Assembly: GCA_965222655.1 (NCBI GenBank)
Contig: CBDCUP010000010.1
Coordinates: 372,848-436,847, forward strand
DNA: 64,000 bases
Source: Acidobacteriota bacterium
Lineage (GTDB): Bacteria; Acidobacteriota; UBA6911; RPQK01; JAJDTT01
Direction of reading: 5' to 3'
Below the pieces are notes generated by a model, which worked only from the letters and a program-made list of their open reading frames with translations, made no database searches and was not told the DNA's origin. Position 1 is the stretch's first letter. Every line of letters begins with the position of its first letter. The position numbers and the translations under genes are program-made. This document shows, piece by piece, positions 4,891 to 50,366 of the stretch.

Positions 4891-4914
4891 TCAGCGCTTC
4901 TATTCGAAATCGCC

Positions 4915-31370: not shown

Positions 31371-31386
31371 TGGCACGCCGCTTGCT
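31371..31386 (+). promoter_or_regulatory. sigma54 (-24/-12) promoter at the head of the glycosylation island
   Basis: TGGCAC-GCCGC-TTGCT, exact consensus, 25 nt upstream of the ATG at 31412. Confidence 0.72.
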
Positions 31387-31411
31387 ACGCCAGGGTTCAG
31401 CAAAGGTCACG

Positions 31412-31816
31412 ATGAAAAAAAAGAACCTGATGCGACAAGCCCTCTATGAAACCTACTTATGCGGTCATGATCTGAAAAGAGTCTGCGCCAACATTCAGGA
31501 GCAGATCCAGCAGGGCGAGGAGAGCAAGGTCCTCGCAAACATGAAGGAGTTCCTGGACGGAGTGGGCTGCATCTCGCAGGCCCTGCACATGACCGAGGCA
31601 GTCCACCAGGACTACCAAATCAGCTTTGATCTGCATGACTTGCAGCGGGTATTGAATCCGCTGGTCGAGGCTCTGGAGAGCCGCGACTTCGGATCAATCG
31701 ATGAGATTCTCAGCTACGACTTCCTACCGCTTTTGGACGGTTGGTCGGCTCAGCTGGCTCAAATCGAGCCGACAGGGGCGCTCAGCGATGCCGGGACGGG
31801 CAACCTGTCGTCATGA
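31412..31816 (+). CDS. Hypothetical helical protein coupled to maf
   Basis: 134 aa; ends with ALESRDFGSIDEILSYDFLP; ATGA overlap with the maf start. Confidence 0.7.
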   Translation: MKKKNLMRQALYETYLCGHDLKRVCANIQEQIQQGEESKVLANMKEFLDGVGCISQALHMTEAVHQDYQISFDLHDLQRVLNPLVEALESRDFGSIDEILSYDFLPLLDGWSAQLAQIEPTGALSDAGTGNLSS

Positions 31817-32161
31817 TCCAGATCGAACATGATCAGGCCAGGAATGGCCAACCGATCCTTCGCGCAGTTGACCCGGACGGCCGAAAGGTCCTGCTTCACA
31901 GCCGCTACGATCCGGAGCGGGAAGCCCAGCAGTGGTGTGACCAACTCGAGTGTAAAGAGCGCGATGTCATCCTTTTGTACGGACTTGGGCTCGGGTACCA
32001 CGTCAAGCCACTCTTATCGAGGCAGAACAGACCCATCTTCGCCGTCGAGCCCAATTCAGAGGTGATCGACATAAGCAGGAAGCTGAATCCATCCTTCTTC
32101 GATGGCGGTGATGTCCAGGTGGTGACCGACTGGGAAGAGTTCAAGTCTGCCTCCTCCCAGA

Positions 32162-33902
32162 GGCAGCGCAACAATTTTTCTGTAATTTCAGGGTCGGTTG
32201 TGGGACAGGATCCTCCTCTCTTGGCTCTCGGGTGCAGAAAGCAGTGGCCCGTGAGCCGCTCGCTGTGAATCTCTCTAAGGCAACCAGCAGATCTATCAAA
32301 ATGAGAGGCCGGAGCAGCTTGCACTACTCGCAGAGAGCGATTCAGCGCCCCCACCTCCTTCTCCAAGAAAAGAGGCCCTGTCAGAAGCCCTCAGAGCCAC
32401 GATCGCGGGCTGCCCCTTACCGAGAACCCTCGCTGATCTGAGGGTCTCGGGTTTAGGGAAACGCTCTTCTAGGATGCCTCCTCTTCTTGCCAGCTCTCCA
32501 GGTTCAGATAGCAGCGGCCCGTGAGCCACTCGTCGTGAATCTCCGCCAGCACGGCTGAGATCAGTCGCAACGCCGAGTCGATATGGGGGAAGATTCCCAC
32601 CACTCGAGTGCGGCGCCGGATCTGTTTGTTGAGATTCTCCACGCCGTTAATCGTCCGGATCTTCTTGTGCAGACTGCGGGGGAAGGCGTAGACCGTCAAC
32701 CCCTCGCGCACGTTGTCTTCCATCCACTGGGCCAGTGCCTGGTTGGTTTCGGTGAACGCCTTGATCTTGCGTTTGAGCATGGCTTCGGCATCCTCGAGGG
32801 TGGGGCTGTTGAAGATGTCCCGCATCGCTTGGCCGATCTGGCCCCGCTCTTGGAGCCGACGGGCAAAGCGCTGAGCATTCTGGCTCAGATGAAACTGGCA
32901 GCGCTGCCAGGGAACCGCGGGAAACACCGCTCGTCGAGCGGCCTTCAGTCCCGCGTGGTCGTCACTGACGACGAGCTCCATTCCCTTGAGTCCCCGCCCG
33001 GCCAGATCCTCAAAAAACGCTCTCCAGTGGACCTCCGCCTCGCTCAGCCGGGCGCTCAGACCCAAGACCTCACGGTGACCGGAAGCCTGCACACCGACTG
33101 CCTTGAGGATGGCCAGGTCCTGAACTCGTCCATCGACACGGACTTTCTCGTAATGGGCGTCCAGGTAGACGAAGGGATACTCACCGCTCAGCGGCCGGCT
33201 ACGGAACTTCTCCAGCTCCTCATCCAGCAGGGAGGCGACCCGTGAGACCTGGCTGGCGGAGATCTCCGTGCCACACAGCTGCTCGGTGATTTCCGTGACC
33301 TTGCGCGTGGAGACGCCCATGACATACATCTCGGCAATGGCCAACTTCAGCGCCTTTTCCGAGCGGCAGCCCTTCTCCAGCGATTGAGGGTAGAACGACA
33401 GCCCTCGCACCTGAGGGATCTTCAGTCGGAGCTCTCCCACACGCGTGGCGATCTTCTTGTCCTTGTAACCGTTGGCGTGGCCCCGTCGCTGGCTCGTTCT
33501 CTCGTAGGGCTCGGCTCCCAGAAACTCCGACCGTTCCAATCCCATGGCCAAGTTCAAGAGCTTCTCCAACACCTTGCGAAAGGTCTCCGTTCCTTCTTGG
33601 ATCAACGCCTCTAGGATCTCTCGTGGTACTCTGTCTTCCAGGTCTGGGGCCATTGGATTCTCCTTTCATTTTGGATGAATGATTTAGAGAATCTTGTCCC
33701 AGACCTCTGACGGCTCAACCCTTCGGCTGACGGCCTTTGGCCCCCTTCCGGGGGGGCCCGGCGCGCAGCGCCGCACGGCTCAGGCTGCACTCGGCCTACA
33801 GCCTCCTTCCGCCTGAGCCGCGCCAGGTTCCTCGTCAACCCAATCCTCGGTATCCCGAGAAATTCCCTCTTAACGGGAAATTACAGAAAGAACGGTACAC
33901 TC
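32162..33902 (-). mobile_element. IS256-family insertion sequence
   Basis: Junction direct repeat ctcctcccaga (32151-32161 / 33900-33910; 8-bp TSD reading ctcccaga); imperfect TIRs share tttctgtaatttc. Confidence 0.9.
32469..33653 (-). CDS. IS256-family (Mutator) transposase
   Basis: RRGHANGY, GVSTRKV, YPFVYLDAHYEKVR, VVSDDHAGL, WQRCQFH, IRTINGVENLNKQIRRRTRV. Confidence 0.93.
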   Translation of the reverse strand: MAPDLEDRVPREILEALIQEGTETFRKVLEKLLNLAMGLERSEFLGAEPYERTSQRRGHANGYKDKKIATRVGELRLKIPQVRGLSFYPQSLEKGCRSEKALKLAIAEMYVMGVSTRKVTEITEQLCGTEISASQVSRVASLLDEELEKFRSRPLSGEYPFVYLDAHYEKVRVDGRVQDLAILKAVGVQASGHREVLGLSARLSEAEVHWRAFFEDLAGRGLKGMELVVSDDHAGLKAARRAVFPAVPWQRCQFHLSQNAQRFARRLQERGQIGQAMRDIFNSPTLEDAEAMLKRKIKAFTETNQALAQWMEDNVREGLTVYAFPRSLHKKIRTINGVENLNKQIRRRTRVVGIFPHIDSALRLISAVLAEIHDEWLTGRCYLNLESWQEEEAS

Positions 33903-35337
33903 CTCCCAGAGCGCAAGTCCTTGGCAAAACATATTCTTCGCCAAGATACCCAGCTATCCAAAACTCTACCAGAGCCACTACCGTACCTTCACCGAAAAAC
34001 TGAAGCGCGAACTGCTGCGAGTTCAGGCAGACCGCACGACGGCGATCATCCACAGCAAGGCCTGGCAGACGAACTTCCTCAAGAATATCCGCTATCTGGA
34101 AGAGAGCGTTCCGGTGGCGACGACTTTCAATGAATTCGTCAAGCAGCCGGTGATCATCGTGTCAGGGGGTCCGTCCCTGACAAAGAACATGCACCTGCTC
34201 AAGGAAGCCAAGGGCAAGGCCCTGATTCTAGCCGTAGGGGCGGTAGTCAAGCTCTTGATCGAAAACAACATTCGTCCGGATCTGATCGTCTCCTTTGACG
34301 GAAACCTGGATAACTATCGACATTTTGAGGGCGTAGAACTTCCGGATGTCACACTGATCTACGATCCCATCATCCACTACAAGGTGGTCGAAGAGCACGC
34401 CGGGCCAAAGTCGATCATGCTCGTCCACGAGAACTGGCTGGAAGATGTCCTGGGAGAAACCATAGGAAAACTGATGCCGGGGCCATCGATCGCCAATACT
34501 GCTTTCGACTTCGCCTACCGGCTGGGTGCTGACCCCATCATCTTTATTGGGCAGGACCTCTCCTACGAAGACAGCTATCACGCTGAAGGTATCGGGACCG
34601 TTACCGACAATCGCGAACTCACTGAGTCAGTCCCAGGTCAGGACGGCAATCCCGTCCGCACCAGTAAGCCTCTGCTGACATTCCTGCACTGGTTCGAGGA
34701 ACGCTTCAGGACTCTGAAGGGCGAGCGAACCATCATCAACGCAACGGAAGGGGGCGCCAACATCAGGGGAACCCAGAATCTTCCACTCCTTGAGGCCCTG
34801 AAGACCTACTGTAATCGAGACCTGACTGAACCCATCAGCCGGCTCAACCAGATCCTGTCACAGACCCCCTCCTACGATATGCTGTCGTTCAGGCGCGCTT
34901 TGGCGACCGCCTACCGAAAATCCCAGGCACTCAGCGAAATGTGTAGCACTGGCGCGCGTCTTTCCCAGAAGCTGATCGATCACTTCTCAGGTCGGCAAAC
35001 GTGCGACGTGCCAAAGATCCTGAAAAAGCTGAATAGGCTGGATCGAAAGCTACAGGCATCTAAATCCGACCTTCGTCCCCTGGTCTACATTCTCTACCCC
35101 ATCATCCAGATTTCCGAGAGTACCCAGATCAATCCGGACCAGAGACAGCTGGAATCGGCTCGGCATTTCTACTTCCTATACTGGCAACTATCCCGTGCGT
35201 TCAGATACGTCAATCCTCTGCTCAAGGAGATCCTTGAGCACCACAAACCAACGTCGGCAACCGCCCAGAAGTCGCCCACAATCCACTGATGAAAGCGCAA
35301 GCCGTTTCTAACCCGCATTTTCGGAGCAGGGTTTTGA

Positions 35338-36679
<1,342 letters not shown>

Positions 36680-37993
36680 GCCTGTCCGCCAAACGGTTCT
36701 CCCCTACGGGACACACAGCATCGACGAGAGCGACATAGAGTCGGTCGTAGAGGTCCTTCGGTCAGGCTGGCTGACCACCGGACCCAAGGTTAGCGAATTC
36801 GAGCAGACCTTTGCCGAGTTTGTTCATGCGCCGCACGCCCTCAGTGTCAGCAGTGGGACCGCCGGCCTGCACGCCGCGATGTACGCCTTGGAAATCGGCC
36901 CCGGAGATGAAGTCATCGTTCCGGCGCTGACCTTTGCTGCTACCGCAAATGCTGTCGTCTACCAGGGGGGAACGCCGGTCTTCACCGATGTCGACCCCAG
37001 GACCCTGCTCCTGGATCCGCTTCAAGTCGAGAGGAACCTGACGTCGAGAACCAAGGCGATTGTGGGAGTGGACTATGCGGGCCAACCTTGCGACTACAGT
37101 GCCTTGCAGGATCTGGCCGAGCGTGAGGGTCTAGGTCTGGTTGCCGATGCCTGTCATTCATTGGGAGCTCGAGACCTCGGTCGACCAGTGGGAAGCCTCA
37201 GTCACCTCTCTGTCTTCAGTATGCACCCCGTCAAATCCATCACCTCAGCCGAGGGCGGAGTGGTCAGCACCTTCGACCCCGCCCTGGCCAACCGAATCAG
37301 GCTGTTTCGAAACCATGGGCTCAGCAAGGATCATCGTCAGCGGAACGAAGAAGGCTCCTGGTTCTACGAGATCAGTGACCTGGGCTACAACTATCGATTG
37401 AGCGACCTTCAGTGTGCCCTGGCGAAGAGTCAGCTTCGCAAACTACCCTCCTGGTTGGAACGAAGGAGATCCATTGCAAAGCTCTACGACTCGGCCCTGG
37501 CAGGTTGCGGCCAGGTTGTGCCCGTTCAGACCAGAGCCGGCGTCTCGCATGCACGCCATCTCTACGTAATCAGGCTGAGACTCGACCGTCTGAAAGTAGA
37601 CAGAACGGAGATATTCAAAGCTCTCCAGCACGAAGGAATCGGGGTCAACGTTCACTATATTCCGGTGCATTTGCATCCCTTCTACCGTCGTGTGTTGCGC
37701 ACTGGATCCGGACTCTGTCCAGTCGCCGAAACCGCCTACCAGGAGATCCTTTCCCTCCCGATCTTTCCGGCGATGACAGACCAGGATGTCGACGACGTAA
37801 TCCAGGCCCTCTTCAAGGTACTGAACGCCTATTCTCGGGACCGTTTCCAGCAGCTGAGTAAGAGCTTCGGGAGGGGCGACTCGAATCCTTCCCGCCCCTT
37901 CTCTCGGGATACGAGCAGGGCGGAGCGGATCCGAATAGGGTCCTAGCAGCCTGTCGGACTTAACTTACAGGCGTTTCTGAAATTTAAGTTTAA

Positions 37994-39730
37994 CCTAAAT
38001 TGAGCGATTCTACTCATTTTAGCGAAAATGAAGGTCGCACAGATGCGAGTTCCGACGGCAGAGGGTTCCGGGTGAGTTCAGAAGGGTGGAGGGTGGCGAT
38101 TTTCCCTCGCGAAAGGGAGCAGCGACCCTGAGCCGAGGCGATAGCGGGCACACGGGGGCCCTGAGGCTGGAAGGAGGCTTTGGTTTTTTGAGATTTAGAC
38201 CCAGGCGAAAGGCGGCGGGTGGGCGCTCTTGCGCCAGAGCCGGTCGATTTGAAGCTGCTTCCAGGTGGCGGCCGTTACTTTCAGCAGGATCTGGCCGGCA
38301 TGGCGGACGATTTTCCCCGCCACGTCGATGATCCGCCGACGTAAGGTCGTGGGGTAGCAGTTGAGCGGCACCACCGGCTGGCACACATCTTCCTTGAAAC
38401 ACTCGTAAAGGAAAAAGGCCACCAGCAACGTGTAGTAATAGGCCGCGTTGGCAGCAAAGCGTTTAAACGGAAGAGTCTGTGAGGTAAAGTCCTTCAGGGC
38501 TCGATGCACTAACTCATCGGCTCCCCGTCCCTGATAGCCTTGCAGGATCGCCTCGGCTTGAAGCCAACGCTCGAGCCCCGCTTGCTGGAGCTGCTCGTCC
38601 ACGGCGGAGCCGCAACCGAGATTGGTGTACAGGATCTGATCGGGACGGGCAAAGGCCAAAAGGCGCTGCTGATCCTCATAAGCCGGTCGGCAGAACAGGG
38701 CCCGGCGGAACTTCTCCCAGCTACCCCGCCGGTTTCCCAGTTCCACATAGTGCCACTCCTGATCGCCGTTGCGAGAGACTCCCCAGGCCGTTTCCTCCAG
38801 CTGCAAGATGTACTGTTGCACATCGCCATAGAGCTTGCCGGCGACGATGTAGCCGACCTGGAGTTCTTCCAAGACCTTCAGCAGCTTCTGATCGAAAAAG
38901 CCGCTGTCCAGGCGCACGATGATGGGTACCTCGGAGCGGTACTTTCGGCGAATCTTCCGGATCAGATGACTCAGGGTCTTCGGGGCCGTGTCGGCGTGGT
39001 TGGAGTGCTTGTCTCCTCCCCGAAAGACGGCATCGATGAGCAAGCGGCCCCAGGTGACCTGAAGCGGCTGAAACCCTTTGACTCGTTTGTAGGTCGGCGC
39101 CACGCCGTGGCGCTGGGGGGCCTCGTCGTTGTCCATCACCATGGTATCCATCCCCAGCAGAATCAGGGGCGGCTGTTGCAATCGCAGCCGCCACAGGAAC
39201 AGCTGCTGCAGGAGTCGGCGAAAGAGCCAGATGCGCCACATGGAAAAGCGGCCGAAAAAGCGCTTGACCGCGTGAGAGGACAGCAAGGCCTCGGGCTTCG
39301 TCTCGATCGCTGCTCCATAGCCCGGATCCTCCTTCAAGGCTTCGAAGGACACCAAATGGCGACTCGATCCGTCTAGGAAGAAGCACCACAGCTGTTTGAA
39401 GATCTCCGTCACCGGCTGTCCTTTGCGGCTTTTGCGCAAGGAGCCAAACAGCCGATCCAGATCAGGGTCCAGACCCAAGCTCCGCACATAGCGGACAAAC
39501 AGGCTCAGCCCGGCGCGTCCGGTCAAGGTCTCCGAGGTGGGTTGCACGTCGTCTATCCTTCGGGAAACAGACGCCTCAGAATGACGGGGAAGGGTGCTAT
39601 AGTGGCTCACAGTTGTTTTACCTTCTGGGTTAGGAGCTTTTCGGTAGCCCATCTACCGCTAACTCCTAGCCCAGCAACATCTTAACTCAAAGATGTGACA
39701 TCCCTAGGCCCATCAATCGCTCAATTTAGG
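37994..39730 (-). mobile_element. IS1380-family element nested in the IS1182 end
   Basis: 16-bp perfect TIR cctaaattgagcgatt / aatcgctcaatttagg; 5-bp TSD tttaa (37989-37993, 39731-39735). Confidence 0.9.
38195..39652 (-). CDS. IS1380-family transposase
   Basis: LTGRAGLSLF, LGMDTMVMDND, IVRLDSGF, YQGRGADELVHRALKD, LPFKRFAANAAYY, TLRRRIIDVAGKIVRHAG. Start uncertain. Confidence 0.87.
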   Translation of the reverse strand: MGYRKAPNPEGKTTVSHYSTLPRHSEASVSRRIDDVQPTSETLTGRAGLSLFVRYVRSLGLDPDLDRLFGSLRKSRKGQPVTEIFKQLWCFFLDGSSRHLVSFEALKEDPGYGAAIETKPEALLSSHAVKRFFGRFSMWRIWLFRRLLQQLFLWRLRLQQPPLILLGMDTMVMDNDEAPQRHGVAPTYKRVKGFQPLQVTWGRLLIDAVFRGGDKHSNHADTAPKTLSHLIRKIRRKYRSEVPIIVRLDSGFFDQKLLKVLEELQVGYIVAGKLYGDVQQYILQLEETAWGVSRNGDQEWHYVELGNRRGSWEKFRRALFCRPAYEDQQRLLAFARPDQILYTNLGCGSAVDEQLQQAGLERWLQAEAILQGYQGRGADELVHRALKDFTSQTLPFKRFAANAAYYYTLLVAFFLYECFKEDVCQPVVPLNCYPTTLRRRIIDVAGKIVRHAGQILLKVTAATWKQLQIDRLWRKSAHPPPFAWV

Positions 39731-39832
39731 TTTAAGGTTTGATTAAAAGTGTTGCATGACCAAGCACGAAAAGCGATGAGTCATCTGCTCTGCGGCGGTG
39801 ATTTGGCCGCTGAAACGACGCGGCCCACCTCT

Positions 39833-41217
39833 TCAGAGGGTGGCACGGGCCATCGTCGGCTGGCGGCAGGAGAGGTTGTACATTCTTTTCAGATTCCAGG
39901 CGATGCTGGCCAGAGTCCACTCCCGGTCTGCTGCCTCCGCTCCTCTGAGAGAGAACTGCGTAAAGCCCATCACCGATTTGATGATCCCAAAGACGGGCTC
40001 CGGGACGGCTTTGCGTTGCCCGTAAATGGCTCGACCCGCGGGGGTCTTCAACCGGTATCTCATCTGCTCCACCGCATCGGCGTCTTGCCCGGGCGGCTCC
40101 GGTTGTTTCCAGCGTTCGGTCGGCCGCAAGTGGTGGGCTTCCCGCTCGACCGCAATATAGGGGACAATCGCGTGCTCGCCACAAAGCTCCACGTTGGGGC
40201 CACTGAAGTAGCCGCTGTCGGCCAGCAACTCCTGGGCCCGACCCAGCGACTCGGGCAGGGCTTGCAGCGCCGCCAGGGCCGGCTCCAATTCTTTCTTGTC
40301 GTTGGCGTTTTGCGTGACATGAGCCGCCACAATCAAGAAGCTGTCGTTATCGACCAAGGCCTGAGCGTTGTAGCATTGCTCAAATCCCCCGCCCGAGACC
40401 GGCATGATCCGAGACTCTTCATCCGTCAGATTGATCTGATCCTGGTCTCGAATTCCTCCTTGGGGCGGTTGGGGGGGCGACCCCGCGGTTTGTTTCCCCG
40501 TTTCCTCTGGGCTTGCCGCTTGGCCACTTTGGCTTCATATTCGGCCTGCTCACCTGCCTGCCGCTCGGCCGCCCGCTGGGCCAGCTTCTGCTTTGCTTCC
40601 TCGATCGCTTTCAACCGTTCCTCCCGCCGCGCCAGCTCAGCCGGGATGTCCATCCCTTCCGTTTCTTCTCGTCCATCCGCTGCCTCGGCCAGCCGCATCA
40701 ACTCTTCCACTTCTTCTCGCAGCCGCGCTTCCAGCTTCCGGATGTGCCCCCAACTCAACGCACTGTGCTTGGAGGCATTGGCTTTGACCTTCGTGCCATC
40801 CAAACTCACGCGGCCCAACTTCAGAAATCCCATCGCCTGGGCCAGCAGCAAGATCTCCACAAACAGCGGCTTCAGCTCTTGCAAAAATCGCTTCCGGAAA
40901 TGGGCGAGGGTGTCGTGATCCGGATGCGTGTTGCCGGCGAGGTAGCGAAACGCCACCGAATCGTAGCTGGCTTGCTCCAACTTCCGACTCGAAAACACCC
41001 CCGTGGCATAGCCGTAAAACAACAACGCCAGCATCATGGCCGGATGGTAGCCTTCCGATCCCCGCTTCGTGTAGGAATCCTCCAGCTTCCTCAGCTCCAG
41101 CTTGCTCACAACCTCCACCACGAAGCGAGCCAGATGCGTCTCCGGCAGCCATTCCTGCACCGAAGGGGGAAACAGATAAGGAGTCTCTCGATCGACTACT
41201 TTAAATCGATTCGCCAT
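39833..41217 (-). pseudogene. IS1182-family transposase, frameshifted at a C7 run
   Basis: N-part YLFPPSVQEWLP, YHPAMMLALLFYGY, SRKLE, PDHDTL, DGTKVKANAS. The -1 frame after G7 (40471-40477 on +) gives QINLTDEESRIM, YNAQA, LADSGY, RKAVPEPVFGIIK. Confidence 0.85.
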
Positions 41218-41281
41218 CACTAATGATGCCTGTGGGGTATGACCTCGAAAGTCCGACAGGCTGCTAGCGAGGAGAGAAGTC

Positions 41282-43021
41282 ATGACGATCCGGAAACAAG
41301 ACGGGAGCCCCGACCTCCCATCAAGGTCGGCGACCTGTCAGTTCGTGGCTGAGGTGTCGAGCAATCACAGTCAGGATCTTGAACGATGCCTTCGATTCAT
41401 TGAGCGCGCCGCCGAGATAGGCTGCAGCGCGGTCAAGTTTCAGCTATTCCGAGTGGATCAGCTCTTTGCTTCCGAGATCCTGCGCCACAGCGCCGAACAC
41501 CGTCAGAGAAGCGCCTGGGAGCTACCCGCTTCCTTCCTTCCGGATCTAGCAGAAAAATGCCGTGCCACCGGCATCAAGTTTGCCTGTACGCCCTTCGATC
41601 TGGAGGCGGTGGAGCAACTCGCTCCCTACGTGGACATTTACAAGGTCGCCTCTTACGAGTTGCTCTGGCATCCCCTCTTGGAAGCCTGCGCTGCGACTGG
41701 CAAGCCCTTAGTCGTTTCAACCGGCATGGCGACCCTGGATGAGATCCGGGCAGCGGTCGATCAGATCAGGTTGTCTGGGTGCAAGGATCTTACCCTGCTG
41801 CACTGCCATTCCCACTACCCCACCCCGGTGGAGGACTGCAATCTGGCAGCTATCGCGACCATGCGGCAAGCTTTCGACTGTCCCGTCGGCTGGTCCGACC
41901 ACAGTGCTCGACCGGAGGTGATCTACCGGGCAGCCTATCGCTGGGGTGCCTCCATGATCGAGTTCCACTTCGACCTGGACGGTCAGGGTGAGGAATTCGG
42001 ACCCGGCCACTGCTGGCTCTCCAGTGAGATTCAGCACGTCATTGGCGCAGTTCAATCAGGGTTTGCCGCCGATGGCAATCCCCAGAAACTCCCCACCGAG
42101 CGAGAGCAGCAGGAACGCACCTGGCGGGCCGATCCCGGCGACGGACTACGCCCCCTGAAGTCGACTCGAAAACTCCTTGTCAAGAACCGGGCTCAGCCCG
42201 CAAGTGTCCAGGGCGAAGCTGGCACGACCGACCAGAGCACGGCATCCGAGGCGTGTGTGATGGCGGTCGTTCAGGCCCGAATGGGCTCAACCCGACTGCC
42301 GGGAAAGGTCATGAGACCGATCCTCGGGCATCCCATGCTGTGGCACGTCGTCCAGCGAGTAGGACAGACTTCCGGCGTAGGCAAGCTGGTTGTGGCCACC
42401 TCCGATCAACCGTCGGACGAGCCGATCCGCCGCTTCTGCCAGGAAAATCATATCGTCTGCACAGCCGGCAGCGAGCAGGACGTGCTCGACCGTTTCTACC
42501 AGACAGCCTGCCAACATAGGGGCGACCCGCTGCTGCGAGTGACGGCGGACTGTCCCTTTGTCGACCCGAGATTGATCGAAAGGCTCCTGGAGCTTTTCCG
42601 GTCTGCCCCCTACGACCATGTTGGAGTCGCCACAGGTGCGGGCGCTCTCCATTCCGACCGCGGCCGTTTCCCGGACGGACTCGACACAGAGTGTTTCAGC
42701 TCTGAAGCCCTGCGCCGAACCTGGACCAACGCGACCAGGTCCTCTGACCGAGAACACGTGACCCCATACATGTGGCGGGTCCCGGGTAGGTTTCGGAACG
42801 GAGCCCTGTTCCCTCGCAAGAACTATTGTCAGCACCGCTGGACTGTGGATACGGAATCCGACTTCGATCTGGTTCGGAGGGTTTACGAAGCTCTCTATCG
42901 GAAACACCAGGCCTTTTCAATGGATGAGATATTGGACTACTTGTCCGAACACCCTGAGCTGGCCCTGCTCAACCACGATCTCATAGGCGCCGAGCAATAC
43001 CATACGGTTTGGGGCCAGTAG
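41282..43021 (+). CDS. Fusion: NeuB/PseI-family nonulosonate synthase (no SAF domain) + SpsF/PseF-type cytidylyltransferase
   Basis: AEVSSNH, AVKFQ, YKVASYE, STGMAT, LHC...YPTP, GWSDHS, IEFHF; linker; then VVQARMGSTRLPGKV, GSEQDVLDR, RVTADCP, REHVTPY, RWTVDTESD; single open frame. Confidence 0.85.
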   Translation: MTIRKQDGSPDLPSRSATCQFVAEVSSNHSQDLERCLRFIERAAEIGCSAVKFQLFRVDQLFASEILRHSAEHRQRSAWELPASFLPDLAEKCRATGIKFACTPFDLEAVEQLAPYVDIYKVASYELLWHPLLEACAATGKPLVVSTGMATLDEIRAAVDQIRLSGCKDLTLLHCHSHYPTPVEDCNLAAIATMRQAFDCPVGWSDHSARPEVIYRAAYRWGASMIEFHFDLDGQGEEFGPGHCWLSSEIQHVIGAVQSGFAADGNPQKLPTEREQQERTWRADPGDGLRPLKSTRKLLVKNRAQPASVQGEAGTTDQSTASEACVMAVVQARMGSTRLPGKVMRPILGHPMLWHVVQRVGQTSGVGKLVVATSDQPSDEPIRRFCQENHIVCTAGSEQDVLDRFYQTACQHRGDPLLRVTADCPFVDPRLIERLLELFRSAPYDHVGVATGAGALHSDRGRFPDGLDTECFSSEALRRTWTNATRSSDREHVTPYMWRVPGRFRNGALFPRKNYCQHRWTVDTESDFDLVRRVYEALYRKHQAFSMDEILDYLSEHPELALLNHDLIGAEQYHTVWGQ

Positions 43022-43092: not shown

Positions 43093-44400
43093 GTGAAAGG
43101 ACAACTCCTGTATCAGAAGGCCAAGACATTGATCCCGGGAGGGATCCAGCTCTTGTCCAAGCGACCCGAACTCTTTCTGCCCGAGCAATGGCCCACCTAT
43201 TACCAATCCGCCAAGGGAATCGAGATAACGGACCTGGATGGTCAGACCTACCTGGACATGAGTATCATGAGCGTGGGCGCCTGCGTGTTGGGATATGCGG
43301 ATCCCGACGTAAACAGCGCGGTGCTGGAGTCGGTCGAGCGCGGATCGATGTGCACCTTGAACGCGCCCGAAGAAGTCGAGCTGGCCGAGCTACTCTGCGA
43401 TCTCCATCCCTGGGCACAGATGGCAAGATATGCCCGCTCGGGCGGCGAAGCCATGTCGGTTGCAGTCCGCATCGCCCGCACCCACACTCGGCGGGACAAG
43501 GTCGCCTTCTGTGGATATCACGGCTGGACCGACTGGTATGTGGCCGCCAATCTGAGCAATAGCACCGCCCTGGACGAGCACTTGATGTCCGGTATCGAAC
43601 CAGCCGGAGTTCCCAGCGGTCTGAGCGGAAGCGCTCTTTCCTTCTCCTACAACCGTATCGACCAACTGCGGGCCATCGTCGAAGAACATGGCAAGGAACT
43701 GGCGGCCATTGTCATGGAGCCTCAGCGTGATGCCAACATCGTCCCTGGATTCCTGGAAGAAGTACGGCAGCTCGCCACCGATTCGGGAGCCGTTCTGGTC
43801 TTCGACGAGATCACTTCTGGATTTCGCATGACGGTGGGGGGGATCCATCTGCTGCTGGGAATCGAGCCGGATCTCGCTGTTTTCGCCAAAGCGATGGCGA
43901 ACGGTTACGCGATGTCCGCAGTCATCGGGTCGAGCCGTGTCATGGAGTCGGCCCAATCTTCCTTCATCAGTAGCACCAACTGGACAGATCGGGTAGGACC
44001 CGTCGCGGCTCTGGCCACCATCCGAAAATTCCGCCAGCACAATGTCCACGAGCACCTCATTCACATCGGTGGCCAGGTAATTCAAGGATGGCAGCGGACG
44101 GCCAAACTCACCCAACTTCCCCTCGAGGCAGGGGGTCTTGGGCCACTCGCCCACTTCAGTTTCAAGACCGACCGCGACGTCCTGCTCTGCACTCTGTTCA
44201 TTCAGATGATGATGGAAGAAGGATTCCTGGCCTTCACCCAGTTCAAACCCTCCTTCGCCCATCAACAACACCATGTGGAGAGCTACCTGGAGGCCCTTGA
44301 AAGGAGTTTTCGAGTCCTCGCCGAAATCAGGTCGGATGAGGAGGGTCAAGCCCTACTCAAGGGTCCGCAAGCCCGGCGGGGCTTCTTTCAGGTTCACTAA
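43093..44400 (+). CDS. Class III aminotransferase (glutamate-1-semialdehyde aminomutase-like)
   Basis: GIQLLSKRPE, DLDGQTYLDM, RSGGEAMS.AVRIAR, GYHGW.DW, LVFDEITSGFR, FAKAMANG. GTG start at 43093. Confidence 0.85.
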   Translation: MKGQLLYQKAKTLIPGGIQLLSKRPELFLPEQWPTYYQSAKGIEITDLDGQTYLDMSIMSVGACVLGYADPDVNSAVLESVERGSMCTLNAPEEVELAELLCDLHPWAQMARYARSGGEAMSVAVRIARTHTRRDKVAFCGYHGWTDWYVAANLSNSTALDEHLMSGIEPAGVPSGLSGSALSFSYNRIDQLRAIVEEHGKELAAIVMEPQRDANIVPGFLEEVRQLATDSGAVLVFDEITSGFRMTVGGIHLLLGIEPDLAVFAKAMANGYAMSAVIGSSRVMESAQSSFISSTNWTDRVGPVAALATIRKFRQHNVHEHLIHIGGQVIQGWQRTAKLTQLPLEAGGLGPLAHFSFKTDRDVLLCTLFIQMMMEEGFLAFTQFKPSFAHQQHHVESYLEALERSFRVLAEIRSDEEGQALLKGPQARRGFFQVH

Positions 44401-44434
44401 CCCAGTTAGGTGAGTCGAGGCATAGAGACTCCCC

Positions 44435-45481
44435 ATGAATCATCATCCCTCGATCCTCTTTCGCTGTGAAGCCTCTCCCGAGATTGGGATGGGACACCTG
44501 ATACGCTGCCTGGCACTGGCGGAAGAGCTGCAGAAGACTCACGGCTTCCAGGTTTCGTTCGCCATGAACTTCGATGCCAGCGGCTCTGAGCTGGTCCGCC
44601 GGGAGGGCTATCGGCTCTACACACCGGGTATCAACACGGGCACGGCCGGGGAAAGCTGGCTCGAGACTGTTCTGCTCAGGGTGGGCCCCGACGTCTTGGT
44701 CCTGGATATCAGGAATGGCCCCTCCGCCGAATTGTTGAGCAACGCCCGAGTCCAGAGACGCCTGATCGTTACGATTGACGATCCTGAATCGAAGAGACTC
44801 GCAGCCGATCTGGCCTTTTATCCGGGAGCACCCCAAGCGCACCGACTCGACTGGACAGGGTTTGGGGGACGGCTTTTTGCGGCTCCCGAGTGGGCGATCC
44901 TACGCCGTCACTTCTGGGTAAACAGAGCAAGCAACGGGAACACGCCTCTGCGCGTTCTGATCACCACAGGAGGTAGTGATCCGGCCGGTCTCGCTCTCAA
45001 GGCAGTCCGCGCGGTCGATCAGGTGGAGGAAAGATTCGAGCCTGCCATCATGCTGGGGCCGGCCTTCTGCCACCTTGCGGCCCTACAAGAACTACTGGCT
45101 CGGACCCGCAAGGACTTCAGAATTCACACCGACCCAGGCGACGTGGCAGGGCTCATGAACCAGTCCGACCTGGCCGTTACCTCTTTCGGGGTCACAGCTT
45201 ACGAGCTGGCAGCACTGGGTGTCCCCAGCGTCTACCTTTGCCTCTCAGACGACCACTCGGCCTCCGCCTCAGTCCTCGATTCCCTGGGCGTCGGAATCAA
45301 TGCAGGAGTCCATTCCGATTCTGCTTCCCAGGACCTCTTGACCGAGAAAACTTCACTCCTGCTTCGAGACAGCCGATTGCGAAATCGCATGTCGGAGACA
45401 GCGTCCGCAACATTCGACGCGCTGGGCGCCAGTCGGATCAGCAGCCAGATCGTCTCACACCTGGAACAGCGAGGTCACTGA
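44435..45481 (+). CDS. pseG: UDP-sugar hydrolase of the PseG/SpsG family
   Basis: IGMGHLIRCLALA, ILRRHF, LITTGGSDP, DLAVTSFGVTAYELAALGVP. Confidence 0.78.
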   Translation: MNHHPSILFRCEASPEIGMGHLIRCLALAEELQKTHGFQVSFAMNFDASGSELVRREGYRLYTPGINTGTAGESWLETVLLRVGPDVLVLDIRNGPSAELLSNARVQRRLIVTIDDPESKRLAADLAFYPGAPQAHRLDWTGFGGRLFAAPEWAILRRHFWVNRASNGNTPLRVLITTGGSDPAGLALKAVRAVDQVEERFEPAIMLGPAFCHLAALQELLARTRKDFRIHTDPGDVAGLMNQSDLAVTSFGVTAYELAALGVPSVYLCLSDDHSASASVLDSLGVGINAGVHSDSASQDLLTEKTSLLLRDSRLRNRMSETASATFDALGASRISSQIVSHLEQRGH

Positions 45482-46584
45482 TGAGCTCCCAGGAAACTCT
45501 CGTCACCATTGGAATCTGCGTCTACAACGGCGAGCCCTTCTTAAGGCAGACATTGAACAGTGCACTGTCCCAGACCCATCAGAATCTCGAGATCATCCTA
45601 TTCAACGACGGAAGTACGGATCGGACGCCTTCGGTATTGGATGAGTTTTCGGACCCTAGAATCCATCGGGTCGATTCGAATCGGAATCTGGGCGTGGGCT
45701 ACGCACGACAGGTGGTCAAGACGCTCGCCAGGGGAGAGTACTTTGCCTGGTTGGACGCTGACGACATCTATCATCCGGATAGAATAGAAACGCTGCTCCG
45801 CCACGCCTTGGATCACGGTTCCGACCTCACCTGTGACGTTTACCGCTTGATGACCCACCAGGGCGAGATCACCGCGCAGACCTACCGTCTACCCGAGAAG
45901 GTCTCATCCGACCCTCACTTCACACGGTTGTTCGAGCGCAACGTCATGATTCCTCACCCCCTCACCAGCGCCAGATGTCTGAAGTCAGTGGAATATGACA
46001 CCGATCTCCAGGTCTCAGATGACTACGACTTCTGGTTGAAGGCCTCTTATGCGGGTTATCTGTTTTCGTTTGTGGACGAGATCAAACTCGACTACCGCCT
46101 GACTGAGGGTTCGCTGACGTCGGATCCGAAGCGCAGCCGAGCTGAGACCAGGGAGATCCTGGGTAAGTACCCGGTTCCAGCGTTGGCAGCCCTCTATCAG
46201 AAAAGGGGGTTCTCCCGGAAGCACATCAACTACATGCAATGTCTGCAGTATCTGTTTCGCCAGGATTACGAGTCCGCACTTTCGTTTGCCTTCCAACCCT
46301 GGCCGGACGAAGAAGATGTCGATCAGGACTTCTACCAGGGAACCCTTCTTCTCCGTGACTCCCAACTACCCGACGCCAGGATGCACCTGGAAAGCCATCT
46401 CTCTCGGCATCCAGAATCACCCGCAGGCAAGAACAACCTGGGGGTGTTGCTCCGGTTGACGGGGGAGACGGGCGGATCCTGTTTCAGCGACGCTCTCGGC
46501 ATTCTCCCTGACTATCAAGATGCGGCAGACAACCTGGCAAGCAGCAGCAGAGGAATCATTACCGATACCCAGATCCGGGTTTGA
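45481..46584 (+). CDS. Glycosyltransferase family 2 with C-terminal TPR-like region
   Basis: TIGICVYNGE, EIILFNDGSTD, GEYFAWLDADD, DYDFWLK; C-terminal KNNLGVLL...DAADNL. Confidence 0.85.
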   Translation: MSSQETLVTIGICVYNGEPFLRQTLNSALSQTHQNLEIILFNDGSTDRTPSVLDEFSDPRIHRVDSNRNLGVGYARQVVKTLARGEYFAWLDADDIYHPDRIETLLRHALDHGSDLTCDVYRLMTHQGEITAQTYRLPEKVSSDPHFTRLFERNVMIPHPLTSARCLKSVEYDTDLQVSDDYDFWLKASYAGYLFSFVDEIKLDYRLTEGSLTSDPKRSRAETREILGKYPVPALAALYQKRGFSRKHINYMQCLQYLFRQDYESALSFAFQPWPDEEDVDQDFYQGTLLLRDSQLPDARMHLESHLSRHPESPAGKNNLGVLLRLTGETGGSCFSDALGILPDYQDAADNLASSSRGIITDTQIRV

Positions 46585-46636
46585 ACATCGCCTCGGCAGC
46601 GCGCTAGGCGGGAGGCGAGCCAGGAGGCTCAACACG

Positions 46637-48308
46637 ATGCTCTACAAGAAAATAGACTTCGAATGCGAGTGCGCAATCGAACTTTTTAGGGTCATCCGGT
46701 AAATGGGGAGGTGGGGACGTGGTTGGCACCTTCCGGATCCCAAATCTGCTCCCCGTTCGCTTGTCCATATAGTCGGCTGCAGTAGCAGAGGCCGTGGGAA
46801 CTGTGGAAAACTCCGAGCGACATCGAACCGGGCCAGCAAGCCCGTGATACGGAGTTTTCCAAGCGCTGTGCGAACGGTGGAAAAACAACTGCGAGCACTT
46901 GCCAGTTCTCCTCTAGAACTACTTGTTTTTCCACGGTTTGCATAGTGCGGCAGTTTCCATGGCCTGCCTTTGACTGGCGGCACCTCCCCATTTACCGGAT
47001 GAACCACTTTTTACCGCTTGCAACTACCACTGTGACTACTGCAGCGGCCCGCGAGCCAAGAAGCTGGTGCGACGGGGTCGGACCCCGGAGGACGTCGATC
47101 AAGTGCTTCGCTTCTTCAATGACTCTGGAAAGAAGTGGCTGATTGGAATGTCGGGGGGAGAGCCGACGGTTCATCCCTTCTTCGGCGACCTGGTCAGTGG
47201 TCTGAACAAAAAACACGCGTTCTACTTTTTCACGAACCTCACTTTCGACGTCGAATCGTTCATGAAACTGGTGTCCGCAGATCAGGTCCAGTACATGAAA
47301 ACATCCCTACATCCCGAAGCCGACGTCGAAACCTTCCTGGAGAAATACGAGCTTCTCTTCGGGTTCGGCTACAACCCGATCCTGATCATGGTATCTGCCC
47401 CCGATACCTTCGACCGGATCAGTCATGTCGCTGATTTCTGCCGGGACCGCCAATACCCTTTCACCCTCTCCGTCATGGAGGGGCCCTACCAGGACAAAAA
47501 CTATCCCAACGACTACAGCGAGCCAGAGGAGCGCTTCATCGAGGAGCACACGGCCGAGGCAGGAAACCTGATCCGGCTATTTTCGAAGACTGCAGGCGGA
47601 CTGAACACCTTGGGACTCTCCTGTCCTGCCGGCCATCAGAGCTTTGTCCTGGATCTGGAGAGCGGCAACGTGTTCAGCTGCGAATCGGTCAACCACATCC
47701 ATGGGAACATCTACGAGGGAACCTTCTCTCCAAGCTCCCAGGACATCACCTGCCCGGCCGTCAATGGCTGTGTGGGCTACGACCGCTCGCCCCTATTGCC
47801 CGGAGCCTACAGGGATTTCTTTACCGAAGGCTGGAACTACTGGCACCTGAAAGACGTCAAGAGCGAACCCGATTACCCCAAGAATCTTCATCAAACCATC
47901 CAGGCCAATCAGAAGGCCTCGGGAGAGATGATCGAGACTGCCCTGGACGCAATTCATCAGCGGATCTCGGGCAACGACACACTGTTTTGGGGCGCGGGCA
48001 TCTACGGAGCAAAAGTTCTCTACAACTTCCACAAGAAATTCCCCGACGCATCTGACGGGAACTCTGCCGGCAGTGTCATCGGCTTCATCGACTCACTGAA
48101 GGACCGACGGAAGACTACGGTTCTTGGACTGCCGGTCTACAGTCCCCAGGACGGAATCGTCAACCGCGCCAAGAAGATTCTGATCACCTCCTATGCCTTC
48201 GAGCGGGACATTCTCGAGGTCGCCAAGAATCTCGGGGTGAAGTCGGAGGTGATCGCCTTGCATCGGGACATCCTGAACTCGATTGGCATCCGCTATGCCA
48301 TCTTCTAA
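46637..48308 (+). pseudogene. Radical SAM protein with C-terminal Rossmann-like domain, interrupted by 317-bp MITE
   Basis: 46637-46688 + 47014-48308 = 448-aa ORF: MLYKKIDFECECAIELFTACNYHCDYC (CxxxCxxC), SGGEPT, FTNL, SLH; C-terminal FWGAGIYG...IGFIDS. Confidence 0.85.
46689..47005. mobile_element. 317-bp MITE, copy 2
   Basis: Same TIRs as copy 1; 8-bp TSD acttttta (46681-46688, 47006-47013); 4 substitutions versus copy 1. Confidence 0.95.
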
Positions 48309-48335
48309 CCCGGATCGAGAAAGGCATCTTTTCTG

Positions 48336-50366
48336 ATGGAAGGACTTCAGCTGCCTACGGCTAGCGCAGCGCCCGGAGCTCTCACCGCATCTTCGGACTG
48401 CCTGAGCCTGTATACCCTCTTTCATCTCAACCTGGCCTACTCATCAATCGAAGAGGAGCTTCGCCCCCAGGTCATCCAACGCTGCTATTGGCCACTGCTG
48501 GAGCTGACTCGACAGCTTCAGATTCCGTGTGGCATTGAGGCCTCGGGCTACACCCTCGAAGCAATCGCTGCCCTGGACCCTGGTTGGGTTGACGAGCTGA
48601 GAATTCTGACCACGGCGGGGTTGTGCGAATTCGTCGGCAGCGGCTACGCTCAGCTGATCGGTCCCCTGGTCCCCGAGAAAGTCAACGGTGTCAACCAACG
48701 TCTTGGCCGTGAGGTCTATGAACAGCTGTTGGGGTTTGCTCCCCGCCTCGCCCTGGTGAACGAGCAGGCCTACTCTGCCAGCATGGTGAGTCTTTACCAT
48801 CAAGCCGGGTACGAGGCCATCTTGATGGAGTGGGACAACCCGGCCTCCGCGCACCCAGAATGGGACCCCAGCTGGCACTACCTGCCCCAATTGGCGTGTG
48901 GACCAGGCGATGAGGAGATAGGTCTGATCTGGAACACCTCTATCGCCTTCCAGAAATTTCAACGTTACGTTCATTCCGAGATCGATCTGGACGAGTATCT
49001 GATCTATCTCCAGGGACACGCCGACCTCCATGCTGGGGCCTTCTTGCTTTACGGCAACGACGTGGAGATTTTTGACTTTCGGCCCGGTCGGTACCATACA
49101 GAGGCGCCTCTCAGCAGCAGCAGCAACGAGTGGACGCGAATATCCGAGCTGTTCCAGGTGTTGAAGCTAGACCCACGCTTCAGTTTCGCTTCACCCAGCC
49201 AGGTCCTGGACTTGATGGGAATGCCGGGATCCGGCAACCGACTCAGTCTGGAGTCGGCAGCCGAGCCGATTCCTGTCAAAAAGCAGAATAAATACAACAT
49301 TACCCGTTGGGCCGTCACGGGCCGAAACGATCTCGCAATCAACACGGCCTGCTGGCAATGCTATCGAGCTTTGGAAGAAAAGACTGCGCCCGGAGACGAT
49401 CTGTGGCGAGAGTTATGCTACCTGTGGAGCAGCGATTTCCGCACCCATATAAGCCCAAATCGTTGGGACAACTACGGCAAACGGCTTGCCGATTTCAAAC
49501 AAAGGCTCTCCATCCGAAAGCCGGCGAGGACCGATTCAGAAGAGAATACGTCCGCGACACACCCAAAGGCACGCCTTCCAGGAAGCATCATAGAAGAGCG
49601 GGGAAACCATATCATCATCCGCAGCGATCAGGTCCGGATTTCCCTGAATCGAAGGCGCGGTCTAGCCCTCGATCGTCTCGGATTCGGATCAGATGGTGAA
49701 AGCAATCTGGTTGGCACCCTCGCCCACGGTTACTACCAGGACATCGCCCTGGGATCGGACTGGTACAGCGGCCACGTGACCCTGGAGTGCTTCGGTCGCC
49801 CCAAGGTGACCGACCTTGAACCCGTAGAGCCGACGATCGAGGAATGTCCGGAGTGGGTGCAAGTCAAGGCAGAGGTTCCCACTCCTCTCGGTCCTGTTCG
49901 CAAGAGAATCAGGGTCTTCCTTGGAATTCCGAGGGTCGAGCTAAGCTACGACATCGATTGGCAAAAAGTTCCCATCGGGGCGCTGAGGATAGGCCACTTC
50001 ACCTTGAACCCTGAGGCTTTCGACCGTTCTCTGCTCTACTATCGGACTCATCTGGGGGGACGCGAAGAGGAAGAGTTCCATCTGAGCGGGACACAGGTGG
50101 ACCACACGGCTCCGGTTTCCTTCGGCGTCTCTGCACGCCATGCCGTCGGAATGACGGATGGTTCCGTCGAGTTCGGAGATGGCTCTGCCAAGCTGAGGTT
50201 GGAAGTCGACCAGGAGCAGGCGGCTCTGGTGGGAATGGTCATCTATCGGGAAGTAGACGATAGCTTCTTCTGTCGGCTGGCGCTCTCTGCTCAGGAAGTA
50301 GACGAAACCAGAAGGGGACGAACCGAAGTGTTAAGGATTCGGTCTACAATCGCGCTAAGCGCCTGA
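48336..50366 (+). CDS. Glycoside hydrolase family 57-like / polysaccharide-deacetylase-fold protein
   Basis: FHLNLAYSSI, CYWPLL, EASGYTLE, GSGYAQLIGPL, VNEQAYS, YGNDVEIF, WSSDFRTHI. Confidence 0.68.
   Translation: MEGLQLPTASAAPGALTASSDCLSLYTLFHLNLAYSSIEEELRPQVIQRCYWPLLELTRQLQIPCGIEASGYTLEAIAALDPGWVDELRILTTAGLCEFVGSGYAQLIGPLVPEKVNGVNQRLGREVYEQLLGFAPRLALVNEQAYSASMVSLYHQAGYEAILMEWDNPASAHPEWDPSWHYLPQLACGPGDEEIGLIWNTSIAFQKFQRYVHSEIDLDEYLIYLQGHADLHAGAFLLYGNDVEIFDFRPGRYHTEAPLSSSSNEWTRISELFQVLKLDPRFSFASPSQVLDLMGMPGSGNRLSLESAAEPIPVKKQNKYNITRWAVTGRNDLAINTACWQCYRALEEKTAPGDDLWRELCYLWSSDFRTHISPNRWDNYGKRLADFKQRLSIRKPARTDSEENTSATHPKARLPGSIIEERGNHIIIRSDQVRISLNRRRGLALDRLGFGSDGESNLVGTLAHGYYQDIALGSDWYSGHVTLECFGRPKVTDLEPVEPTIEECPEWVQVKAEVPTPLGPVRKRIRVFLGIPRVELSYDIDWQKVPIGALRIGHFTLNPEAFDRSLLYYRTHLGGREEEEFHLSGTQVDHTAPVSFGVSARHAVGMTDGSVEFGDGSAKLRLEVDQEQAALVGMVIYREVDDSFFCRLALSAQEVDETRRGRTEVLRIRSTIALSA

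Follow-up and report, generated by a model that had tools for sequence, protein, structure and literature searches.

Why should the genes for a flagellar sugar be crowded with mobile elements in a chromosome whose flagellar genes are whole? This question is raised by a 64-kb stretch of Acidobacteriota DNA (the window, to which all coordinates refer unless another contig is named), in which flagellar genes lie on both sides of a glycosylation block at 31.4-50.4 kb (the island). Within the island there are five insertions: an IS256-family insertion sequence (IS) in maf, a putative flagellin glycosyltransferase gene; a miniature inverted-repeat transposable element (MITE) in pseB; an IS1182-like element with an IS1380-like element nested in it at the end of pseC; and a second copy of the same MITE in a radical-SAM gene. 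The original prediction, made from the window alone, took this pattern for selective damage to the flagellar glycan. Comparison with sister strains and sibling species leads us to a different reading, to which we assign a probability of roughly 0.68: a heavy genome-wide load of IS and MITEs combined with clade-wide decay of flagellar motility, and not a targeted attack on the sugar pathway.

Results

Five insertions in the glycosylation island

Seven sister assemblies were available for comparison, which are long-read metagenome contigs from seven samples recovered by exact-protein look-ups: A (4.73-Mb contig, 42x, ERZ25766727 ctg362384), B (96x), C (3.2-Mb contig), D, E, F (1x) and G. Their identity to the window in the aligned parts is 99.5% or more, and 99.7% or more outside two short or low-coverage stretches. 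Two further contigs, L035 and L045, represent sibling species. The interrupted genes and the elements of the island are as follows, with terminal inverted repeats abbreviated as TIRs and target-site duplications as TSDs.

31813..32162, plus strand: 5' fragment (codons 1-116) of maf, a Maf/PseD-like flagellin glycosyltransferase gene; partial match to Pfam Maf_flag10_N
32163..33899, minus strand: IS256-family element; transposase at 32469-33653, Transposase_mut (PF00872, E=1.6e-110)
33912..35289, plus strand: 3' fragment of maf with the MptE-like catalytic region (PF01973, E=9.5e-41)
35353..36679, plus strand: pseB, inverting UDP-GlcNAc 4,6-dehydratase (TIGR03589), split by copy 1 of the MITE (MITE-A)
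35677..35993, unstranded: MITE-A copy 1; TSD CAAAAAAC at 35669-35676 and 35994-36001
36642..37946, plus strand: pseC aminotransferase, 434 aa, intact (TIGR03588); the same 434-aa protein occurs in the sisters
37943..41267, minus strand: IS1182-like element with perfect 19-nt TIRs CTAGCAGCCTGTCGGACTT; DUF772, DDE_Tnp_1 and DDE_Tnp_1_6 in the sister copies
37994..39730, minus strand: IS1380-like element nested in IS1182; transposase at 38195-39652, DDE_Tnp_1_4 (PF13701, E=1.3e-31)
46637..48308, plus strand: radical-SAM gene, split after codon 17 by MITE-A copy 2 (open reading frame analysis and excision)
46689..47005, unstranded: MITE-A copy 2; TSD ACTTTTTA at 46681-46688 and 47006-47013

All five insertions are real: for each, an empty site occurs in a sister strain or a sibling species, and excision restores the open reading frames (ORFs) of maf, pseB and the radical-SAM gene. 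The IS256 element is flanked by 12-bp direct repeats CTCCTCCCAGAG (32151-32162 and 33900-33911), which exceed the 8-9 bp typical of TSDs in this family, and its TIRs are imperfect with a core of 13 bp. Excision of 1749 bp joins 31813-32162 to 33912-35289 and yields a single maf ORF of 575 aa, colinear over 100% of its length with two intact 575-aa orthologues, P0001 and P0002 (90% and 82% identity, respectively). The empty site is present in sibling contig L035. An exact-protein look-up of the window's IS256 transposase returned no record. The left end of this copy is without 2 bp (GC at 32161) that the sisters keep.

MITE-A is 317 bp long and has 25-nt TIRs (96% identity), ends that read GGGTCATCCGGTAAATGGGGAGGTG, and 8-bp TSDs at three clean sites; all three duplications, CAAAAAAC, ACTTTTTA and ACAATTTG, are A/T-rich. 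The two copies in the window are 99% identical to each other. Removal of copy 1 gives a 333-aa PseB identical to the intact sister allele. Copy 2 lies upstream of the CNYHCDYC (CxxxCxxC) motif and severs it from the start codon of the radical-SAM gene; its removal gives a 448-aa protein with one substitution relative to the sister allele. Apart from the insertions, the target ORFs are thus unmutated, as originally proposed.

The situation at pseC is different from a knockout. The gene is intact because its stop codon TAG falls within the terminal CTAG of IS1182, so that the knockouts in the island comprise maf, pseB and the radical-SAM gene but not pseC. On the far side, the gene for a PseI-PseF-like fusion protein retains its ribosome-binding site and ATG 14 nt past the end of IS1182. 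The element itself is missing at this site in L035 and L045. Its transposase is intact (461 aa) in the sisters, but the window copy has a run of seven G residues at 40464-40470 where every sister has eight, causing a -1 frameshift; judged by its sequence, this copy is dead through the frameshift together with the nested IS1380. The latter has 16-nt TIRs and duplicates TTTAA relative to the single-copy empty site in sister B. Clean TSDs had been claimed for all insertions. This is borne out for both MITEs and IS1380 and, with its 12-bp repeat, for IS256, but the TSD of IS1182 is ambiguous: CTAG is palindromic and may be part of the TIR, and the empty sites in the sibling species are strongly diverged.

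An old lesion in maf and young, strain-specific lesions elsewhere

Comparison with the sister genomes provided the empty sites and also the order of events. The IS256 insertion in maf and IS1182 are present in B, C, D and F, i.e. in all sisters that cover the IS sites, and remnants of both are found at the deletion junction of A. Thus, maf::IS256 is old and shared, while the later island lesions are independent and strain-specific. MITE-A is absent from pseB in B, C, F and both sibling species; among the sisters only D (contig L012) has it. The radical-SAM allele of 448 aa is intact in A, B, C and E. In D this gene carries a different MITE copy, 94% identical and in the opposite orientation, within ~20 nt of the window's site. 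One TIR of the D copy (L007 8456-8900, corresponding to window ~46681-47030) is short by 11 nt, and the flanking duplication is imperfect and ~27 bp long instead of 8 bp; it is either an independent second insertion at the same spot or an assembly artefact at low coverage (10x). The IS1380 insertion at this site was seen only in the window among the strains compared. An exact look-up found the element in one other place, a 100% identical copy in the related genome L030, where ~five further IS-related genes lie within 21 kb. The MITEs and IS1380 are young and polymorphic; like an IS4-like element outside the island, described below, they are private or rare.

Later lesions vary from strain to strain. 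Strain A is without 31613-32156 and 33501-41185; the latter is a 7.7-kb deletion, with an IS256 remnant at its junction, that extends from the 3' part of maf through the whole of pseB and pseC into IS1182, most of which is gone. In B and C no island gene shows an additional lesion, and the IS1182 copy of C harbours a distinct IS256-like element. Outside the island, B has frameshifts in motA (2-bp deletion) and fliD (net 5-nt deletion), split FlhF and FliN, and a 260-bp MITE variant between flgJ and flgM. In C, an IS1595 element lies between flgJ and flgM and MITE-A in the PSD1 gene. E carries MITE-A in flgH, whose product is cut to 139 of 226 aa, and is frameshifted in flgK (1 bp lost) and flgJ (11 bp gained). 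The DUF1501 gene of D is interrupted by an IS; an exact-protein look-up of the DUF1501 protein, taken from its first ATG, returned no record. G has a 28-bp insertion and frameshift in the CMD gene. A further, private MITE of another family is found in A (504 bp, L031 ~4895-5398, corresponding to window ~12270; TIRs CAATACTGTTCAYTTAAG, 10-bp TSD GGGCTAGGGA).

The combination of a shared hit in maf, counted in all five sister assemblies with intact coverage of the site and as a remnant in a sixth, and later lesions that vary by strain matches what relaxed selection predicts, and the proposal that selection on the remaining pathway genes eased after the first hit is thereby supported. The same data bear on the idea of a contingency locus, in which the insertions would be reversible on/off switches of flagellar glycosylation. 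At the ica locus of Staphylococcus epidermidis, IS256 is known to cause phase variation by inserting and excising precisely, and the otherwise unmutated target ORFs would suit such a switch. However, none of the six sister assemblies covering the site has an uninterrupted maf, so that no empty maf site is found in this species, and the 7.7-kb deletion of strain A is irreversible. Moreover, the window's IS256 end is short by 2 bp, the IS1182 transposase is frameshifted and interrupted, and three separate knockouts would all need to revert. A contingency locus is largely refuted by these findings and has very little probability left.

A technical explanation must also be considered, namely that the window is a chimeric consensus of strains whose five insertions do not stand on one chromosome. 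The population is mixed and polymorphic for exactly these insertions, the assemblies of sample D break at these repeats, and three insertions are seen in the window alone, namely IS1380 within IS1182, the IS4-like element and the MITE in the radical-SAM gene in the form it takes here. But, the ambiguous TSD of IS1182 aside, every junction has a proper TSD and a matching empty site, the IS256, IS1182 and MITE-pseB junctions recur in independent assemblies, and adjacent insertions are less than 6 kb apart, i.e. within the reach of single long reads. We consider a chimera improbable. Two assemblies (L034 beyond 20534 and L011 beyond 12885) lose synteny precisely where the group II intron or IS1182 lies, and unrelated genes follow; either the genome has been rearranged between copies of a repeat, or the assembly has been joined at one.

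Insertion load inside and outside the island

Altogether, no fewer than 11 mobile or repeat elements lie in the window. Five belong to the island; the six found outside it are:

4702..4894, unstranded: 193-bp MITE-like repeat with ~24-nt TIRs, intergenic between efflux-pump genes; copies elsewhere in a related metagenome-assembled genome (MAG) and in L045
11620-11990: small repeat/MITE family that recurs at other sites in related genomes
19683..22104, minus strand: IS4/Tn5-like element, 2422 bp; 720-aa transposase at 19881-22043, 18-bp TIRs, TSD GCCTAGCC
27760-27993, plus strand: 234-bp MITE-like repeat; copy in a related MAG
~27994-29871 (ends approximate), plus strand: group II intron; reverse transcriptase/maturase ORF at 28389-29795 (RVT_1 and GIIM)
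30415-30589: small repeat/MITE family that recurs at other sites in related genomes

The IS4/Tn5-like element lies 10 bp past the motA stop codon, inside the flagellar cluster, and is private to the window: it is missing in A, B, C and D, and the empty site was seen. The group II intron, which scores 117.9 and 44.7 bits with Rfam group-II D1D4 models and sits, likewise within the flagellar cluster, between fliS-orf119 and the island, is present in A, B, C, D and F; another group II intron is located 2 kb past the left end of the window in all sisters. In view of the IS4-like element, the intron and the four small repeats, the claim that the island is selectively hit is weak. The native DNA of the window took up 10 insertions, 4 of them in the island, whose share of this DNA is 25% (P=0.23). 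When only large or verified elements are counted, 4 of 6 are in the island (P=0.04, with the boundaries set post hoc). Per native kb, the island has ~0.23 polymorphic insertion events, the flagellar genes ~0.19 and the non-flagellar flank ~0.17. As far as measured, IS density elsewhere is largely as high as in the island, which the original prediction had named as grounds for its rejection. The MITE and IS insertions in the flgH, PSD1 and DUF1501 genes of the sisters likewise speak against selective targeting of the glycan. We found no evidence that selection specifically removed the glycan.

The elements responsible are abundant in the lineage. MITE-A is present twice in the window, in flgH, the PSD1 gene and the flgJ-flgM gap of sisters, and at no fewer than 15 loci in related MAGs. 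A scan of species-representative genomes for the MITE ends found at least 17 loci, and at least 14 contigs of a related Acidobacteriota MAG end at MITE-A. Ten copies of four other small repeat families were counted in 88.7 kb of this MAG. The IS, MITE and group II intron load of the lineage is heavy and currently active, and MITE-A belongs to a family that is transposing now.

MITE-A has a single ORF, of 99 aa, for which no Pfam match is recorded. The IS1595 element of strain C (L005 11878-12993) has an 8-bp TSD AGTCTGGT, and its terminal GGGGTATCC resembles the GGGTCATCC of the MITE over the first 9 nt, a weak match; as a lead from sequence likeness only, IS1595 may be a candidate autonomous partner of MITE-A. 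In the flgH copy of strain E (L002 9310-9660, corresponding to window ~57975) the right TIR is missing (22 nt) and a 12-bp duplication CACAAGAAGAAG flanks the element, which points to either an aberrant insertion or a later microhomology deletion.

A target-site hotspot, whereby composition or recent acquisition draws insertions to the island, would be another way to explain the cluster. MITE-A duplicates A/T-rich 8-mers, and the radical-SAM site has apparently been hit twice, in the window and in D. Yet the G+C content (GC) of the island (0.55-0.60) equals that of the rest of the window, in whose GC profile the IS4-like element (66% versus 57% background) is the sole outlier, and insertion density per native kb is only ~2x that outside, a difference that is not significant. 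In addition, three species share the island in synteny and by vertical descent, and its synonymous divergence (dS) of ~0.3 is like that of its neighbours. A scan of the window found no tRNA gene and hence no tRNA-linked integration site. A hotspot is highly improbable.

Sibling species and timing of the knockouts

In L035, whose Maf is 90% identical and which shares ~89% nucleotide identity with the window, all island genes are intact, the five insertion sites are empty and the intron is absent. This contig has a 3.3-kb IS21 element inside the flagellin gene and, upstream of the gene for the regulator, an IS1182 element. In L045 (82% identical Maf) the island is intact as well and the intron absent, but a clean deletion corresponding to window 17648-25866 removes motA, the regulator, flagellin and flaG genes and most of fliD, and an IS is found in the 3' remnant of fliD. 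Hence, three related species have three different lesions, each of which, judged from the genes affected, should prevent formation of a normal filament.

To date the lesions, ratios of nonsynonymous to synonymous substitutions (dN/dS) were computed against L035 (89% identical), as the strains differ by ~0.1% only; the changes are not polarised to one lineage. The split genes gave 0.17 (maf), 0.13 (pseB) and 0.10 (radical-SAM), the same as intact flagellar genes. Overall, the island genes range from 0.10 to 0.28 and the flagellar genes from 0.05 to 0.33, at a dS of ~0.3. Since the island genes behave like the flagellar genes, nearly all of the divergence accumulated under purifying selection and the knockouts are recent.

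A model for stepwise decay and its weighing

The insertions, their order and the lesions of sister strains and sibling species are shown by the sequences; from them we infer that the split maf has lost its function, that the filament is affected in consequence, and that selection was then relaxed and not positive. Decay would have begun in an ancestor of the sampled strains, when IS256 landed in maf, the gene for a putative flagellin pseudaminyl-transferase, a state that would then have become common to all. The IS1182 element between pseC and the pseI-F fusion gene and the group II intron near fliS would be as old as maf::IS256. Filament assembly depends on glycosylation by Maf in the systems characterised. 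A maf1 mutant of Aeromonas caviae has unglycosylated, intracellular flagellin, is without polar flagellum and is non-motile (PMC3426422). By analogy, the maf knockout would probably have abolished glycosylated filaments, leaving the pse genes and probably the whole flagellar regulon dispensable. The strains would subsequently have gained differing secondary lesions by chance from genome-wide transposition, the window acquiring the MITEs in pseB and the radical-SAM gene, IS1380 within IS1182 and the IS4-like element behind motA. Insertions and frameshifts that selection normally purges would now persist. According to this model, the island looks selectively hit because coding insertions there are no longer purged and because the sample was one genome. 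Motility loss, one of the outcomes originally envisaged, is plausible; it looks like a clade-wide decay of the whole apparatus rather than a first step confined to the glycan. The flagellar genes of this window are intact as stated before, no flagellar coding sequence having a private indel or insertion.

Several observations weigh against this model. The insertion maf::IS256 is the sole gene disruption in 64 kb that is common to all sampled strains, which could mean that it was favoured. Every coding disruption of this window falls in the island: 3 of 4 island insertions are intragenic as compared to 0 of 6 outside, where all six are intergenic (Fisher P=0.033), a distribution that fits relaxed and positive selection alike. 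B and C keep all other pse genes intact and identical, so the pathway may serve another glycoconjugate. "Genome-wide" refers to ~100 kb of flanking and scattered samples, some of which were chosen for containing an IS. Finally, some sister frameshifts come from assemblies of 10-27x and could be errors, although in the 18.7-kb non-flagellar flank those low-coverage assemblies show one small indel only (28 bp, in G).

The first two of these points, together with the parallel lesions in the three sibling species (maf::IS256, flagellin::IS21 and the motA-flagellin-fliD deletion), could also be read as adaptive loss. In this scenario, the glycosylated filament was a liability as phage receptor or in host recognition, knockouts of maf and later of pse genes were favoured, the IS256 allele swept to fixation, and the later knockouts made the loss permanent; the fact that the window's coding hits are all in one pathway would fit. 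However, relaxed selection alone predicts parallel hits at 0.17-0.23 polymorphic events per kb everywhere, the unrelated PSD1, DUF1501 and CMD genes are hit at similar rates, and the sibling species retain the glycan genes intact, which makes the glycan itself an unlikely target. We regard adaptive loss as unlikely, though clearly ahead of the three explanations dismissed above. The broader version, that the three sibling species independently destroyed filament production, each by a different mobile-element lesion, and that host or phage pressure rather than drift selected these losses, is similarly doubtful. If it were true, adaptive loss of motility could be followed in this population as in a natural time series, with an active MITE family as mutagen and knockout of a glycosyltransferase as one favoured entry point. 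As to a possible host, one MAG with the same MITE bears a name suggestive of the sponge grounds of Langseth Ridge, where Acidobacteriota are enriched in Geodia sponges (PMC8826442); sponge association is only a lead. Our preferred reading is that of IS load and motility decay under relaxed selection.

Gene content of the window and further features

Scans with Pfam and NCBIfam profiles delineated the gene order. The region of 1-18.5 kb has transporter genes, a PSD1/PSCyt2 gene and a DUF1501 gene, and 18.9-27.6 kb has motA, a response regulator with HD domain, flagellin, flaG, fliD and fliS. The glycosylation block begins with a DUF8042 gene followed by maf, pseB, pseC and the NeuB/PseI-cytidylyltransferase fusion gene, and continues with class-III aminotransferase, PseG-like, GT2, radical-SAM and GH57 genes. 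Beyond the block, the opposite strand encodes dus, csrA, fliW, flgL, flgK, flgN, flgM, flgJ, flgI and flgH, followed by flgA, flgG, flgF, fliN and fliM. The named homologues of FlgI (63-68% identity) are all labelled Acidobacteriota; these and the shared MITE are the basis of the taxonomic placement. The intact genes of the block downstream of IS1182 are:

41282..43021, plus strand: NeuB/PseI-like synthase fused to a CMP-sugar cytidylyltransferase (PseI-PseF-like), intact; Pfam NeuB and CTP_transf_3
43093-44400, plus strand: class-III aminotransferase, intact; profile scan, gene length as in the sisters
44435-45481, plus strand: PseG-like gene, intact; profile scan, gene length as in the sisters
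45481-46584, plus strand: GT2 glycosyltransferase, intact; profile scan, gene length as in the sisters
48336..50366, plus strand: GH57-family gene, intact, right edge of the island; Pfam scan

PseB and PseC exceed the equivalog cut-offs of NCBIfam, and PseG and PseI stay below theirs. PseB scores 453.8 with TIGR03589 (cut-off 407.75), determined for the intact sister allele, which equals the excised window gene, and PseC scores 448.5 with TIGR03588 (cut-off 423.5). The PseG-like protein reaches 135.1 with the NCBIfam PseG model at a cut-off of 153.55, the PseI-like domain scores 179 against a cut-off of 340 and is tied with NeuB, whose NCBIfam hit is likewise below cut-off, and the cytidylyltransferase is identified by Pfam CTP_transf_3 alone. 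No PseH/GNAT-like ORF was found among the island genes scanned; this function could be encoded elsewhere, or another acyl group could be used. For Maf, PF01973 and a partial PF20157 match, the NCBIfam PseD domain on orthologue P0001, and the label "motility associated factor glycosyltransferase" of its named homologues agree, as does the position of maf, which adjoins the flagellin genes downstream of fliC-flaG-fliD-fliS. The gene following the radical-SAM gene codes for a GH57 protein here versus an ATP-grasp protein in both sibling species (L035 from 20831, L045 from 20917); the right edge of the block thus differs among species.

Further observations concern the elements outside the island. 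The IS4-like transposase combines the Pfam domains DruA, Tnp_DNA_bind and DDE_Tnp_1, and its N-terminal 270 residues match the DruA family of Druantia (PF14236, E=4e-35). For the 389-aa reverse transcriptase of the intron, an exact-protein look-up returned no record. A 27-nt inverted repeat (93%; 27768-27794 and 29872-29898) brackets the 234-bp repeat and the intron, each arm with a terminator-like hairpin, an arrangement that may reflect entry of the intron into a palindromic terminator. A region of hexamer repeats (30760-30880; ATCGGT/ATCGAT units forming long inverted repeats), located between intron and island, directly follows a 115-aa ORF (30463-30810) and differs in one unit from all sisters. 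Upstream of motA, a segment of ~107 bp (18681-18787), bounded by ACTTAA repeats, is missing in A, C and D and rearranged in B; it may represent one more very small mobile element or else a footprint within the region of the motA promoter.

Discussion

In this work, the dismantling of an organelle can be followed as an ordered series, with a first hit shared by the strains of one species, second hits that differ between strains, and first hits that differ between sibling species. Long-read metagenome assemblies captured this process at strain resolution in uncultivated Acidobacteriota. The locus also advises caution with inference from a single genome, as the cluster of lesions in one pathway seemed targeted until the sisters showed that the elements hit everything nearby.

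How does this compare with known systems? In Shigella, IS mediated loss of the flagellar operon flhDC (PMC7373316). As there, an expanded IS load is observed, flagellar function would have been lost through IS insertion and IS-associated deletion, and different lineages have different lesions with the same predicted phenotype. Unlike in Shigella, where the master regulator is concerned, the first shared hit here is in a flagellin glycosyltransferase gene, and MITEs and group II introns take part. Moreover, the organism is an uncultivated acidobacterium known from metagenomes alone, whose non-motility is inferred from its genes.

The island itself resembles the Maf/Pse loci of Aeromonas caviae, Campylobacter and Helicobacter (PMC3426422, PMC4065374) in its position near flagellin, fliD and fliS. 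Shared components are maf, pseB, pseC, a PseG-like gene and a PseI-like synthase with a cytidylyltransferase. It differs from these loci in the fusion of PseI with PseF and in additional class-III aminotransferase, GT2, radical-SAM and GH57 genes, and the scanned island genes yielded no recognisable PseH homologue. In Campylobacter, variation of maf arises by homopolymer slippage, in contrast to the IS insertion found here. An IS256-family element in a gene for a surface structure, flanked by a short target duplication, recalls the ica locus of S. epidermidis, but excised alleles are absent from the six sister assemblies covering the site and an irreversible deletion follows the lesion.

Dense mobile elements, strain-specific pseudogenes, IS-bounded deletions and the decay of dispensable systems are also features of young symbionts such as the luminous symbionts of ceratioid anglerfish (PMC6020299) and Sodalis glossinidius (PMC7067036). 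The present case differs in that host association is not established and, with a largest sister contig of 4.73 Mb, the genome is not yet small. More generally, pseudogenisation driven by IS and loss of motility are textbook traits of bacteria entering a restricted lifestyle, and to our knowledge the documented cases are nearly all cultured pathogens or insect symbionts. The process described here is therefore a known one, of which the Acidobacteriota locus is a new and well-resolved instance in a new lineage.

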